DNA of 64,000 nt. It comes from Escherichia coli. GTDB taxonomy: Bacteria > Pseudomonadota > Gammaproteobacteria > Enterobacterales > Enterobacteriaceae. The position numbers and the translations under genes were made by a program. Where the stretch lies: NCBI RefSeq assembly GCF_041248615.1, contig NZ_CP158426.1, one strand, 5' to 3'. Of the stretch, positions 2,086 to 64,000 are shown piece by piece. The notes under the pieces are model-generated. The model worked only from the letters and a program-made list of their open reading frames with translations, did not search any database and was not told the origin of the DNA. Position 1 is the first letter of the stretch, and every line of letters begins with the position of its first letter.

Positions 2086-5000
2086 TTAATGGAAAATGAC
2101 GTCGGGTGCGCTTAACGCCTCACTCAAATCAAACACATCAAGTTCGGCAAAAGTGACGGATTTATTCTCACGGTATACATGAAGAGAACGGAAGCTCATT
2201 AGCGCTTTGCTATCAACATTGTAGTGGTTAAAACCGGATGAAAACTTAAGGACCAGCCGGTACTCGCCCAAGTCATAGACAAATGCGTTCTCATAGCCTG
2301 ACTCCCAGCCTTTGTATCGCAATCCCATAAGTTGCCCAACGGTAGCAGATTTACCTTCCCAGCGATTCAAACTATTACTGGCTGACTCGTCAGGCGTGAG
2401 CAGCACCGTGCGGCGCGACAATTGGCGAAAAGGCGACATAATTTCGTAATCGGCAAAAAGCTGTGCAAATTCACTGCGCATTTCTGCTGTCATTTCTAAC
2501 GGGTGGGCAATGCCAATCAGAGCATCGGCAGGCAGGTCAATTGGCTCATCTTGCTCATTGCAGAACTCCCCCTCAGCGGCCACACGAAAGGCGTTGAGTA
2601 AACAACGCGGTTCATTTGCCGGATAAACACCCCATATCAATCGCTGAGTAACCAGGCGGGTAAAGGGATGATTAATAAACAGAGAATGAAAATCTGCCAG
2701 CGACCAGCGTCGGGTGGTGCGCAGGGCAGTTTCAAGACGCGGGAGCAGGTTTTTGCTCACCTGAGTAGCATCTTTTTTTAGCCCTTTTAGTCGGGCCAGT
2801 GCCTCGGGTGCTTTCAGTTGATCGTCATCGGCGCGCAACCGGGGAACGCTTTTCTGGCGAACGTTTTGCTGATCAAAGATAACCGGGTTGAGGTTTTCAT
2901 CGAAGCGAACGGTAAATTGCCGTGGACCAAAATCAAAAATCAACGCCTGCGGATCATCAAGACCCAGTGTTGGGACTAATCTGTCCGCTAACTGTTCCTG
3001 GCTTAGCCCGCGATTTTCTGCGACCACCTGAAGAAATTCCGCCGCGTTATCACGTAAGGGGCGGGATTTCGCCCGTTGCGATATATGATGCAGCTGCATC
3101 AGCGCCATATCATTATTCATCAGGGTAAGGATGTTCAGGCCACTGACAGCACGGGCAGATTTGCCTTCTTGTGGCCAGGCGAGGATCTGTGTCGTTAGAT
3201 CCCGTGTCGTGCTTTCGTCACCAAAGAGACTTAACGCCAGAAATGCCCAGTTGTCTTTTGCGGGGGCACCAGCTTGTTGCCACGCAGTGAAGAGATCCCA
3301 GGCAAAAGCTGCCAGCGTTTGTGGCTGGCAGAACGTTTTCAGTTGTTCCAGCCCGCTATAAAAACGTCCGCCTTGGGTAAAGCGCAGCATTTCGCCGATA
3401 ATTTCCAGAGCGTCATCGGTAACAGGCTGATTATTTGTGATAAGGCGCGGCCTGGACCGCATTTGCGGCTGCCAGAAATCAGGGGCTTTTGGAATGCGTG
3501 TCGGGTAAATCTCTATTGGACTCTGTTTAAGTAATTGCTCCAGGGCAGGCCATACATCTGTACGCTGCCAGCGGTTTGCCACGGTTTGCAGTAACTCGCC
3601 ATGTCCCTGTTCGTAAAGTAAACGCAGGGCAAGTAATGCAGCTTCGCTATTATCGCTGGATTTGGTGAAGACAAGAGGGATAAGTGCAGTAGCTGTATGT
3701 TCCGGCCAATGTAAAATCCACTGGCGAGCCAGATCACGCTGCGCCGCGAAACGTCGCCAGACGCGGGCAACGGGCAGGGCCAGTTCTGTTGCGCCAAAAT
3801 TTAAAATTAACGGAAATGTTTCTTTTGGACGATGTGAAAAAGCCAACAGCAGACCTGGTAGAGCATCCAATCCGAAGATACTGAGAAAATAGTCCTCACC
3901 CGCAGACAGATGCTTTTTCTCATTGATACGTAGCCAGAAAGTCAAAGCCATCTCACGCGGCAACTGCGCCAATAAATACAGGTTCCAGATACTCTTTTCC
4001 CGACGATAGCGTGAGTAGCTGTCATTTTCCCATATGTTAATGAACACTTCTACGTGACCGTTGCGAAGCGCCTGTTCTGCTAATTGAGCTTCCGGGGAGC
4101 TCCAGCCATTCATGATCTCTTCAACCCGCCCTGGGTAGTAATGCCACTGAACAATGAGTGAATTGCGTGCAGCATCCAGTTTTCCGGGGAGTATATAATT
4201 CAAAAACAGCCATACATCATCTCCAAAACCCAGCTCCTGTAATACAACTCGTCCACTTTTTTGTTCCATGCGTTCCGCAAGAGATTCCGTGCTGAAATAA
4301 CGGGCAGACTCAGTGGCGGCAAGCCTCTCTTGTTCGCCTGGTTGCCAGTAAACTTGCGGGGTTAATTCGAGCGGTGCCAAATCAAGACGTGGAGCTGTCA
4401 TTTTTTTCTTACTACGCCACGGTGGTGAAACGAGGATTTCAGGCAGATTGCTGTTATCGGTGCCATCAATAACCGGTTTGGGCGGTGCCGATAAATAACT
4501 ATTCAGCACTGCCCGGGCTTGAGTACTTAACCACGGCATCACTTCTGCTGCCAGTTGTGGCTGCGATGCCATCAGCGTTTGTAACAGCGTACGCCAGTAT
4601 TCATCACGTGCTTTTTGCTGTGCAGGCAGCTTTTTGTCTTCGATGATTGGATAACCAGGGCGCGTAGGTGGTTCTTTTAGCGCCAGCAGTTCTGCCAGTG
4701 CGGCAAGCGTCGCATGGGGGAAATTTTTACTGTATTTAGCTACACGTTGCAGGCTGGGTTTGTTTTTATCAGCAACTAACAGCAGGGTGCGGATGACCTG
4801 CGGATGGTTAATTTGTACCAGCAGACTGCCGCAATCTTCTTTATGGGCATACATTGCCAGGCGTGGAACGGCTGCCAGTCCTTGTTCGCGCAAAAGGGCA
4901 GCGCAGGCCGCGTAGCCGAAGTGGTTTTCATGCGACATGTAGCTGGCTTCCCGATCGCTAAATATATCCTGGCTCCAGTAGCGTTCGAGTTTTCTCACCG

Positions 5001-20519: not shown

Positions 20520-20599
20520 AACCAAACGACTCGGGGTGCCCTTCTGCGTGAAGGCTGAGAAATACCCGTATCACCTGATCTGGATAATGCCAGCGTAGG
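20520..20599 (+). repeat. Left 80-bp direct repeat (attL-like); copy of the thiM TPP-riboswitch aptamer sequence
   Basis: aaccaaacgactcggggtgcccttctgcgtgaaggctgagaaatacccgtatcacctgatctggataatgccagcgtagg is identical base for base to 33185-33264. Confidence 0.9.
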
Positions 20600-20654
20600 T
20601 TGCCAACATTCTGATTAGTATTCATGTGGTTACATTTCTTTTTGTCCGTGTGTA

Positions 20655-33184: not shown

Positions 33185-33317
33185 AACCAAACGACTCGGG
33201 GTGCCCTTCTGCGTGAAGGCTGAGAAATACCCGTATCACCTGATCTGGATAATGCCAGCGTAGGGAAGTCACGGACCACCAGGTCATTGCTTCTTCACGT
33301 TATGGCAGGAGCAAACT
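33185..33317 (+). promoter_or_regulatory. thiM TPP riboswitch (thi-box aptamer plus expression platform); its first 80 bp are also the right direct repeat (attR-like) of the island
   Basis: Sequence ...cgactcggggtgcccttctgcgtgaaggctgagaaatacccgtatcacctgatctggataatgccagcgtagggaagtcacggaccaccaggtcattgcttcttcacgttatggcaggagcaaactATG matches the recalled E. coli thiM riboswitch. Confidence 0.9.
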
Positions 33318-49453: not shown

Positions 49454-49540
49454 AAAAAATAAGCCCGTGTAAGGGAGATTACACAGGCTAAGGAGGTGGT
49501 TCCTGGTACAGCTAGCATTTTATGGGTTATGTTTTTCAGC
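49454..49540 (-). ncRNA. cyaR: CyaR (RyeE) Hfq-dependent small RNA
   Basis: Minus-strand sequence GCTGAAAAACATAACCCATAAAATGCTAGCTGTACCAGGAACCACCTCCTTAGCCTGTGTAATCTCCCTTACACGGGCTTATTTTTT matches the recalled CyaR sequence, ending in a terminator hairpin and U-tract. Confidence 0.9.
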
Positions 49541-49624
49541 GAAACGGATGATAACCTTAATAAATGCAGCTGTATGTGATCGGTTTCTAAGAATTTTCCA
49601 TCCGGGAAAAATAATCGAAATTAA

Positions 49625-61200: not shown

Positions 61201-61381
61201 GGTAGAGCGTGACTACCTGAATGGTCGGATAGTCCACTTCCGGCAGCGCCGAAACGGGCAGGGCTCGATAACCGATAATCCCGGCGAGTAAGATCGCCAC
61301 CATCAGCAGCGTGGTGGCGACAGGACGCATAATAAACAGGCGCGACGGGCCGCCTGTGCTGCTCGGGGGTAACACCTGCAT
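58259..61381 (-). CDS. mdtB: RND multidrug efflux pump subunit MdtB
   Basis: 1040-aa RND permease ORF. Confidence 0.95.
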
Positions 61382-62628
61382 CAGGAGCGTGCTCCTTTTT
61401 TCGCGTATTCGCGGCTGGTGGCTTTCTCTTCCGGAGTGGTGGCGCTCTGGGCTTCCACTACTTCCACTTTCGCCCCTTCGGTCAGGCGATCAATGCCGTC
61501 TGTCACTACGCGGTCGCCCGCAGAAATACCTGCGCGGATCACCACTTTCTGACTGTCCTGAATGCCCGGCGTCACCAGATGTTTGCTGACCTTGTTTTCG
61601 CTATTCAGCACCCAGACAAAATGGCCTTCGTTGCCCATTTGCAGAGCGGCGGTGGGGATCACTACGGCGTTTTGTTCGGTGTCGACTAACATACGCGCGT
61701 TAACAAACTGATTGGGAAACAGCGCATCATCCTGATTATTAAAGCGTGCTTTCACTTTAATCGTACCGGTAGTGGCATCGATTTGGTTATCGAGACTTAA
61801 CAGCGTGCCTTCACTTAATTTCTTCGAGTTGGTGCGATCCCAGGCTTCAACAACCAGCGGTTTTCCGGCTTTTTGCGCCTGTACTACGGTAGCGATATCG
61901 CTTTCCGGCAGGGTAAAGAGCAAATCGATAGGATGCGTCTGGGTGATCACCACAATCCCGGTGGTATCACCACTGGAGATTTGGTTACCAACATCAACCT
62001 GCTTGAGACCAACGCGACCATCGATTGGTGCGGTGATGCGGCTCCAGTCGAGCTGCAGCTGCGCGCTGGCGACGCTTGCTTCATCAGCCTTAATGGTGCC
62101 TTCGGTTTCACTGACCAGCGCCTGTTGGGCATCCAGCTCCTGGCGGGAGACAAGATTGGTTTTTGCCAGTTGTTGATAACGCGCCAGGTCACGGCGGGCG
62201 TTGGCAAGCGTGGCTTTATCTTTTGCCAGTTGGCCCTGGGCTTGTGCTAATGCAACTTTGAACTGGCTTGGGTCAATTTCTGCCAGTAAATCGCCTGCTT
62301 TGACCTGCTGGCCTTCCTGGAAATGTAACGCCATCAGTTGACCGTCCACGCGGCTGCGCACCGTAACGGTATTAGCGGCGGTAATGGTGCCAAGCCCGGT
62401 GAGATAACGTGGCACAGCTTGTTCTACGGCAGTCGCCGCCTGAACCGGGGCTAATGGGCCGGCACGCATACCACGGCGACCACCCGCTGGCGATTGCTGC
62501 GCTTGTTTCGTCGCCCCTGGGGCTGCACTCTGGGAGTCATTGCGGCCTTGCCAGAACCAGAATGCGGCGATGGCGGCGATAACCAACACGATTACGATTA
62601 CCCAACGGGATTTATAACTGCCTTTCAT
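61381..62628 (-). CDS. mdtA: RND membrane fusion protein MdtA
   Basis: Start at [24 protein letters not shown] (415 aa); ORF track extends to 62775. Confidence 0.9.
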
Positions 62629-62699: not shown

Positions 62700-62856
62700 T
62701 GGAGGAATTATGAAACACTGTCGGGAATCGTCTGAATGACGGGCACATTTGCGAGCACGCATCCAGTAATAACACATGAAACTATTTTATCTGCAAGTTA
62801 GCGATAGACTGCTTGCATGGCGAAAGGAGGTAAGCCGCCGTTTTCAGCGGGACGCT

Positions 62857-62999
62857 GAAACGGGAAAGCCCCTCCCGAGGAAGGGGCCTTAAATAAGGAA
62901 AGGGTCATGATGAAGCTACTCATCATCGTGGTGCTCTTAGTGATTAGCTACCCAGCATACTAAGACTACCAGGGCGGGGGAAACCCCGCTCTACCCTCA
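62857..62999 (-). ncRNA. sibB: Sib antisense sRNA, copy 1 (ends approximate)
   Basis: Minus-strand promoter TTGACA (63029-63034)-17 nt-TACTTT (63006-63011); terminator hairpin GCCCCTTCCTCGGGAGGGGC plus UUUCCCGUUU near 62860-62888; fully overlaps the ibs ORF. Confidence 0.65.
62907..62963 (+). CDS. ibsB: Ibs type I toxin peptide, copy 1 (MMKLLIIVVLLVISYPAY)
   Basis: 18-codon hydrophobic ORF with AGGAAAGGG SD; matches the Ibs peptide family. A/B assignment is approximate. Confidence 0.75.
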   Translation: MMKLLIIVVLLVISYPAY

Positions 63000-63184
63000 C
63001 TCCTGAAAGTATGCCTTCACGATAAGATTGTCAATCTGCAGGCTTTGCAGTCTGCGATCCTGCCAGCAAATATTCTTTGCGAGACGTTACGCAATAATCA
63101 CACTGGAAACTATTTTATCCGCAAGTCAGCGATAGACTGCATACAGGGCGAAAGGAGGTAAGCCGACGATTTCAGCGGGACGCT

Positions 63185-63327
63185 GAAACGGGAAAGCCCC
63201 TCCCGAGGAAGGGGCCTTAAATAAGGAAAGGGTCATGATGAAGATACTCATCATCGTGGTGCTCTTAGTGATTAGCTACCCAGCATACTAAGACTACCAG
63301 GGCGGGGGAAACCCCGCTCTACCCTCA
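63185..63327 (-). ncRNA. Sib antisense sRNA, copy 2 (ends approximate)
   Basis: Same promoter (TTGACA at 63357-63362) and terminator architecture, offset 328 bp from copy 1. Confidence 0.6.
63235..63291 (+). CDS. Ibs type I toxin peptide, copy 2 (MMKILIIVVLLVISYPAY)
   Basis: Identical to copy 1 except L4I; same SD context. Confidence 0.75.
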   Translation: MMKILIIVVLLVISYPAY

Positions 63328-63513
63328 CTCCTGAAAGTATGCCTTCACGATAAGATTGTCAATCCGCAGGCTTTGCAGTCTGCGATCCTGCCAGCAAATA
63401 TTCTTTGCGAGTCGTTACGCAATAATCACAGAGGAAACTATTTTGGTCACGCGTTAGCGATAGACTGCATTCAGGGCGAAAGGAGGTAAGCCGACGATTT
63501 CAGCGGGACGCTG

Positions 63514-63662
63514 AAACGGGAAACCCTCTCCCGGAGAAGAGGGCTTTTAATAAGGAAAGGGTTATGATGAAGCACGTCATCATACTGGAGATACTCTTAG
63601 TGATTAGCTTCCAGGCTTACTAAGAACACCAGGGGGAGGGAGAAACCTCTCCCTAACCCTCA
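63514..63662 (-). ncRNA. sibA: Sib antisense sRNA, copy 3 (ends approximate)
   Basis: Promoter TTGACA (63692-63697)-17 nt-TAATTT (63669-63674) on the minus strand; hairpin CCCTCTCCCGGAGAAGAGGG at 63524-63543. Confidence 0.6.
63564..63623 (+). CDS. ibsA: Ibs type I toxin peptide, copy 3 (MMKHVIILEILLVISFQAY)
   Basis: 19-codon ORF of IbsA type; contains a Glu codon (GAG) inside the hydrophobic stretch. Confidence 0.7.
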   Translation: MMKHVIILEILLVISFQAY

Positions 63663-63843
63663 CTCCTGAAATTATGTCACTCCGCCCTTAGTGTCAATCG
63701 ACGGCTCTCCGTTCTTGCGAGGCGAATAGCAAAATTTTCTGCGCCGCCGGGCCTAATTCTGAAAGTTTCTTCGTTTGCTCTTATTTCATTATTGCAATCG
63801 GTATGATACCGGGCCTCAATAATTCTCTAAGAAAGGATTTCTT

Positions 63844-64000
63844 ATGAGCGAACAAATCACGTTTGCCACCAGCGATTTTGCCAGTAACCCGGAACCACGT
63901 TGCCCCTGCATTTTGCTGCTGGATGTTTCTGGTTCTATGAACGGTAGACCTATTAATGAACTTAACGCCGGATTGGTTACCTTTCGCGATGAGCTGCTTG
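63844..64000 (+). CDS. yegL: 5' end of vWA-domain protein YegL (partial, runs off window)
   Basis: ATG at 63844 after AAAGGA SD; [41 protein letters not shown] (vWA MIDAS-like DxSxS). Confidence 0.7.

Follow-up and report, generated by a model that had tools for sequence, protein, structure and literature searches.

A three-unit sib/ibs type I toxin-antitoxin array between mdtA and yegL of Escherichia coli, at a site where copy number is commonly polymorphic

The 64,000-nucleotide stretch of Escherichia coli DNA analyzed here (the window) contains, with a probability that we put at about 0.93, the chromosomal array of sib/ibs type I toxin-antitoxin units in the mdtA-yegL interval where it normally lies, here in a three-unit form of a locus whose copy number is commonly polymorphic. 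Three tandem units of ∼328 bp occupy positions 62748-63735, and the genomic site is orthologous to that of K-12 sibA/sibB, being the mdtA-yegL interval in both. An earlier reading of the same DNA from its letters (the sequence-only reading) had already placed a sib/ibs locus of three tandem ∼328-bp units here, and this is borne out by matches to the Rfam family RF00113, by repeat searches, and by the open reading frames (ORFs). The extent then given, 62780-63700, captured the array but not its boundaries, which lie slightly wider, at about 62748 and about 63735. Tandem Repeats Finder reported a single array at 62767-63676 with a period of 328, 2.8 copies, and 90% matches, and the repeat search returned three in-register copies with a spacing of 328/328-335 nt. 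The left flank is mdtA (61381-62628, minus strand), located from the ORF list and from the RefSeq annotation of E. coli strain GN02461 (482-1729 in its locus, offset +60899), to which the window locus is 100% identical. The right flank is the 5′ end of yegL (63844-64000, plus strand, truncated by the window end), mapped from 2945-3604 of the GN02461 locus and from the sequence. Between these two genes, RefSeq lists three "type I toxin-antitoxin system Ibs family toxin" genes in GN02461, and all three ibs products of the window thereby carry the Ibs family toxin name given by the NCBI pipeline in that identical strain. Published work already describes the locus, how it acts, and its presence in several copies, and the three genes are already in RefSeq for the identical strain.

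Each of the three units has an ibs ORF of 18-19 codons on the plus strand that is covered in full by a Sib RNA on the minus strand, and the assignment of units 1 and 2 to the IbsB type and of unit 3 to the IbsA type also stands. Unit 1 (62748-63075), delimited by the repeat search, is an IbsB-type unit with the LL-Y allele and shares 98.5% identity with the first unit of the four-unit arrays of STN0717-11 and A10; its left ∼35 nt are the variant typical of first units. Unit 2 (63076-63403) is IbsB-type and, by a segment mismatch table and difference maps, a chimera. Unit 3 (63404-63735), which adjoins yegL, was typed by its alignment with K-12 sibA and by unit identities. The plus-strand ORFs lie at 62907-62963 (18 codons plus stop, MMKLLIIVVLLVISYPAY; WP_001386901.1, "Ibs family toxin" in GN02461), at 63235-63291 (18 codons plus stop, MMKILIIVVLLVISYPAY; WP_012767742.1 in GN02461), and at 63564-63623 (19 codons plus stop, MMKHVIILEILLVISFQAY, which is K-12 IbsA with a V9E substitution; WP_072146903.1 in GN02461). 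A Shine-Dalgarno region, AAGGAAAGGG, precedes each ORF, the copy in unit 1 lying at 62895, 12 nt upstream of the ATG.

The Rfam SIB_RNA model (RF00113) gave three full-length minus-strand matches, at 62892-63034, 63220-63362, and 63549-63697, which scored 141.6, 140.8, and 145.9 bits where the gathering score is 56; it matched nowhere else in the 64-kb window. The transcripts, ∼143-149 nt in length, are placed on the minus strand at 62856-62998 (Sib RNA 1), 63184-63326 (Sib RNA 2), and 63513-63661 (Sib RNA 3, SibA-type) on the evidence of these matches and of their folds. Their putative start sites, +1G at 62998, +1 at 63326, and +1G at 63661, follow from reports of a +1G start in sibA and sibB and of a 35-bp upstream stretch that suffices as the sibD promoter (PMC12956327). 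The Sib promoter proposed earlier, TTGACA-17-TA(C/A)TTT, was readily recovered by pattern search at 63006-63034 and 63334-63362 (TACTTT in both) and at 63669-63697 (TAATTT), all on the minus strand; matches to TTGACA-N17-TAMTTT in the 64-kb window number exactly three, one in each unit, against 0.04 expected from shuffles. A generic promoter and terminator scan detected no Sib promoter or terminator at the array, and it misses the promoters because their -10 element matches just three of the six consensus bases. The proposed terminator, an 11-bp GC-rich hairpin with a U-rich tail, is likewise found in all three units.

The predicted Sib folds reproduce the family structure, with a closing stem, three internal hairpins, the 11-bp GC-rich terminator hairpin, and the U-rich tail, at z scores of about -4. 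Sib RNA 1 folds at -59.6 kcal/mol (z = -4.1), with its terminator hairpin at 62866-62890 followed by the U-rich tail, and Sib RNA 3 at -54.8 kcal/mol (z = -4.0), with its terminator hairpin at 63521-63546. Sib RNA 2 differs from Sib RNA 1 at a single base, A at 63244 versus C at 62916, which is Sib position +83 in a hairpin loop. Within the Sib RNAs, the ibs ORFs correspond to positions +36 to +92 in units 1 and 2 and +39 to +98 in unit 3; the Shine-Dalgarno region also lies inside, and each Sib is perfectly complementary to this region and to the entire ORF.

Overproduced Ibs peptides depolarize the inner membrane and stop growth (PMC8309996), and Salmonella IbsA has been reported to bind subunits of the F0F1 ATP synthase (bioRxiv 10.1101/2025.05.26.656083). 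The toxicity of overproduced Ibs and its repression by the cognate Sib are known for the K-12 pairs (PMC2943612, PMC8309996), in which the Sib RNAs are constitutive and cover the entire ibs ORF together with the ribosome-binding site. Recognition between SibC and ibsC involves two independent domains, TRD1 (+46 to +68, in the ORF) and TRD2 (+99 to +115, in the initiation region), which fall in the most variable regions of the family and confer the cognate specificity of each Sib, with the exception of ibsA, which is repressible by non-cognate Sibs (PMC2943612). Once Sib has paired with ibs, translation is blocked and RNase III-dependent decay follows (PMC4147584). By analogy with these pairs, the plus strand of each window unit would make a hydrophobic Ibs peptide of 18-19 residues and the minus strand a Sib of ∼143-149 nt, running from its own promoter to an intrinsic terminator. 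The Sib would then pair with the ibs mRNA through two recognition domains, leading to a translation block and RNase III decay, and the peptide would be kept off. The +83 difference between Sib 1 and Sib 2 lies outside the regions corresponding to SibC TRD1 and TRD2, and because this loop base is the sole difference between the two RNAs, Sib 1 and Sib 2 should repress both IbsB-type mRNAs interchangeably.

A sigma-70 scan for an ibs promoter found nothing. A TAnnnT element (TAGACT in E. coli) located ∼95 nt upstream of the ATG is conserved in the Escherichia, Citrobacter, Salmonella, and Kluyvera units and is the sole candidate for the ibs promoter; on the strength of this conservation, putative ibs -10 elements with the sequence TAGACT are placed on the plus strand at 62805-62810 in unit 1, 63133-63138 in unit 2, and 63461-63466 in unit 3. 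A by-eye search also considered the conserved TTTGCGAG and TAGACT blocks as the two parts of one sigma-70 ibs promoter, and this was rejected because the blocks are ∼50 nt apart and cannot form a single promoter. A further Shine-Dalgarno-like stretch, AAGGAGGT, stands upstream of each ibs ORF at 62824-62831, 63152-63159, and 63480-63487 (plus strand), with no start codon following. The Escherichia, Citrobacter, and Salmonella units largely retain it, and Kluyvera lacks it; it could act as a standby site for ribosomes or pair with a downstream CCTCCC stretch.

The window Ibs peptides differ from K-12 IbsB and IbsA by one or two residues. In the IbsA of unit 3, the change is V9E (GTG to GAG at 63588-63590), which puts a charged residue into the hydrophobic core of a 19-residue transmembrane peptide. 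Of the 4,488 genomes with an IbsA-type unit, 15 carry exactly this allele. Since O166:H15 strains share the three-unit layout of the window and have a normal IbsA, V9E arose within a clade that was already three-unit. As summarized in PMC8309996, mutagenesis of IbsC found that central hydrophobic residues and at least 10 hydrophobic residues are required for toxicity, and, on the basis of that summary, V9E may weaken or abolish the toxicity of IbsA. The IbsA-type unit as a whole is missing from 938 of 5,426 complete genomes (17%), among them F11 and UTME-7, which have arrays of IbsB-type units alone.

To compare the units, we cut them from 13 arrays and aligned them for pairwise identity. The sequence-only reading had described copies 1 and 2 as nearly identical, which holds for the Sib/ibs core, where one difference falls in the 143-nt Sib-transcribed stretch, and does not hold for the whole unit, where 20 of 328 positions differ (93.9% identity) and 18 of these differences lie within the initial 94 nt, upstream of the ibs ORF. 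The recent tandem duplication that had been suggested on this ground does not survive the comparison. If a K-12-like two-unit array had recently gained a duplicate of its IbsB-type unit in this strain or lineage, that would agree with the single base separating the two cores and with the two units of K-12; we nevertheless regard such a duplication as very improbable. The whole units differ at those 20 positions, and both are closer to units of other strains than to each other, unit 1 at the 98.5% given above and unit 2, a recombinant, at 96.6% for its best match in any other strain. The near identity of LL-Y and IL-Y cores is also found in many strains and is not peculiar to the window, both IbsB-type cores of the window have five ORF base differences from K-12 sibB, and three-unit arrays whose allele orders differ occur widely. 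Unit 3, for its part, shares 99.1% identity with unit 4 of STN0717-11/A10 and 98.2% with unit 2 of K-12. These identities mark the window units as old paralogs.

The same comparisons bear on whether the third copy is an assembly artifact, that is, a mis-expanded repeat, for which nothing speaks beyond the general risk attached to tandem repeats and to which we give practically no credence. The units are distinguishable from one another (6% and about 20% different), eight independent complete genomes match the unit 1-unit 2 stretch exactly over 401 nt, and the stretch is present at an identity of at least 99% in 44 of 5,422 records (about 0.8%). Over the full 2.2-kb locus, nine records reach an identity of at least 99%. 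The sharing of the exact stretch by eight independent genomes excludes the artifact as a way of dismissing the third copy.

The mismatch pattern along unit 2 indicates that it is a chimera of two older unit classes, with a WI-class 5′ part and an IL-Y-class core. Its segment 63076-63174 has no mismatches to the WI-class (UTME-7, LHM10-1, and S1-CAM-01-A unit 3) and 11 to the IL-Y units of STN/A10, whereas its segment 63232-63298 has none to the IL-Y class and 8-9 to the WI-class; mismatches in the reciprocal comparisons are also put at 8-9 and 8. The WI-class unit of STN0717-11 has six mismatches to the 5′ segment of unit 2 and is not the best match there, a point against the four-to-three history proposed below. 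In three independent four-unit arrays, a WI-F unit and an IL-Y unit are adjacent in this order. An ancestral four-unit array of the form LL-Y / WI-F / IL-Y / IbsA could have undergone an unequal crossover between its middle units, WI-F and IL-Y, within the identical stretch 63175-63231, which would delete exactly one unit length and leave LL-Y / chimera / IbsA, the array of the window. Because WI-F and IL-Y are adjacent in those arrays and window units 1 and 3 are nearest to their outer units, a single crossover is the most economical route, and we lean toward such a four-to-three loss as the history of the window array.

A history without a deletion from a four-unit array, in which unit 2 became chimeric by gene conversion with the unit number unchanged or in which the four-unit arrays came from duplication in three-unit ones, appears rather unlikely, although several observations agree with it. 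Units are mosaic in many strains, the allele orders conflict between arrays (O157 has IL-Y, WI-F, A; STN has LL-Y, WI-F, IL-Y, A; CP026085 has LL-Y, LL-F, A), and T-HYM1, which carries the unit 1-unit 2 junction of the window together with an extra LL-Y unit, resembles a gain. Set against these are the recurrence of WI-F followed by IL-Y in the three four-unit arrays and the fact that the nearest matches of window units 1 and 3 are the outer units in the same arrays, both of which argue for the crossover. The chimeric unit 2 could also have its source in a crossover in a different parental array. The conflicting orders and the extra LL-Y unit of T-HYM1 suggest that gain and loss are both ongoing. 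A fixed ancestral order of five unit types with strain-specific deletions was considered and rejected, as the orders of O157 and STN0717-11, and those of CP026085 and UTME-7, conflict.

A broader reading, which we advance tentatively and with some doubt, is that the mdtA-yegL array is an actively recombining cassette array and that in this lineage IbsA may be disabled by V9E, with the intact SibA then being effectively an orphan antitoxin. If this were so, crossover and conversion would repeatedly combine the upstream half of one unit, with its promoter and 5′ UTR, and the toxin/antitoxin core of a second, as seen in unit 2 of the window, and such unit fusions would give rise to new combinations of regulation and specificity.

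Three units is one of the two commonest states in E. coli (∼40% of complete genomes, by sample) and is ordinary. Frequencies were taken from two evenly spaced samples, one of 40 and one of 60 records, drawn from the 5,422 E. coli records that matched, rather than from a full count. A three-unit query with 600-nt flanks reached 80% coverage in 4,547 of 5,419 genomes, and a two-unit query was unusable for a count at this coverage because it joined three-unit genomes across the extra unit. The sample of 40 had a three-unit span in 17 records and a two-unit span in 15. The sample of 60, examined with longer flanks, had three units in 24 records, two in 25, one in 1, and four or more in about 7, the remainder being interrupted or odd arrays (2/60) and a short record without the locus (1/60). 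The idea that three copies are an unusual state is thus refuted by the comparison that the sequence-only reading had itself named, as the reference strains O157:H7 and BL21 carry three, in line with the 17/40 and 24/60 of the samples. Its statement that K-12 carries two copies was correct, MG1655 having two units, IbsB-type and then IbsA. Arrays of one and of two units were verified by example, the latter including K-12 and arrays without an IbsA-type unit. Three-unit arrays were verified in O157:H7 (including TW14359/Z869), a record labeled DH5alpha, BL21-RIPL, LHM10-1, and two relatives of the window, and four-unit arrays in examples that include STN0717-11, A10, and T-HYM1.

Repetition of ibs-sib inside one intergenic region has been described, with seven Ibs genes in O157:H7 Sakai (PMC2887945), and five Ibs genes are reported for K-12 MG1655 (PMC4147584). 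The sole survey of type I copy number in E. coli that a literature search found (PMC11264685; 2,212 genomes for zor/orz) covers zor/orz, tisB/istR, and shoB/ohsC, not ibs/sib. With two and three units about equally common, K-12 should not be taken as the reference state for the array, and mosaicism at the level of units means that the "ibsB" of one strain is not a simple ortholog of the "ibsB" of another. Work on Ibs toxicity or on Sib-ibs specificity could draw on the rare V9E allele of IbsA and on the chimeric unit as natural variants.

Several records drew attention during these comparisons. In two strains, IS421 and IS150 lie inside the array between units (3586-4704 and 3359-4728 of the respective extracted loci). 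The 4.83-Mb record NZ_CP026085.1, labeled "DH5alpha," has a three-unit array, whereas K-12 derivatives have two, and it is probably not a true DH5alpha; one DH5alpha assembly has been noted to disagree with others in zor/orz copy number (PMC11264685). In BL21-RIPL (NZ_CP083273.1, 669-2160 of the extracted locus), chaA and not mdtA adjoins the ibs array, which points to a rearrangement, or a misassembly, that ends at the array.

The K-12 pairs sibB/ibsB and sibA/ibsA are known as QUAD/Sib repeats (Fozo et al. 2008, as cited in PMC2887945 and PMC2943612). The window array resembles them in its mdtA-yegL site, unit length, organization, promoter architecture, and RNA family, with identities of 98.2% between unit 3 and the K-12 sibA unit and of 95.7% between unit 1 and the K-12 sibB unit. 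It differs from K-12 in having one extra IbsB-type unit, in its IbsB-type peptides, which end in ISYPAY where those of K-12 end in ISFPAY, with five base changes in the ORF part of the Sib, and in the V9E of IbsA. The arrays of O157:H7 and BL21 share the layout of the window, with three tandem units at the same site and RefSeq Ibs family toxins, but their allele composition and order differ: IL-Y, WI-F, IbsA in O157 and WI-F, LL-F, IbsA in BL21, against LL-Y, chimeric IL-Y, IbsA(V9E) in the window. Further parallels are the E. coli ldr/rdl (LDR repeats) and zor/orz systems, which also combine a small hydrophobic toxin with an antisense RNA, are repeated in one intergenic region, and vary in copy number between strains. 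Their sequences are unrelated to sib/ibs, and their antitoxins overlap the 5′ part of the mRNA only, whereas Sib covers the whole ibs ORF and the Shine-Dalgarno region.

Beyond E. coli, we scanned one genome per species for a Sib/Ibs unit beside mdtA and used the Rfam model for unit counts. An mdtA-adjacent unit was found in Escherichia albertii, Escherichia whittamii, two further Escherichia species, many Citrobacter, Pseudocitrobacter, Kluyvera, and Salmonella enterica subsp. diarizonae. By the Rfam model, these relatives mostly have one unit at the mdtA site, with two in Escherichia sp. E1V33 and Pseudocitrobacter faecalis; exactly one lies between mdtA and yegL in Escherichia sp. MOD1-EC7003. 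The single units of Citrobacter and Salmonella encode IbsA-like peptides of 19 residues. Since most relatives have one unit at this site, a single unit beside mdtA is probably the ancestral state, with amplification to two to four units within Escherichia.

The 64-kb window also contains a second type I toxin-antitoxin locus, with one match to the OrzO-P antitoxin (RF02083, 88.8 bits) at 1258-1331 on the minus strand and an intact 29-codon zorO-type ORF (MDTLTQKLTVLIAVLELLVALLRLIDLLK) at 1577-1666 on the plus strand. One OrzO-P match and one intact zorO-type ORF make this a single zor/orz copy; many strains have two copies or a locus with orz only (PMC11264685). Two TPP riboswitches and the CyaR small RNA (20522-20617, 33187-33283 (+), 49457-49542 (-)) are ordinary for this part of the E. 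coli chromosome.
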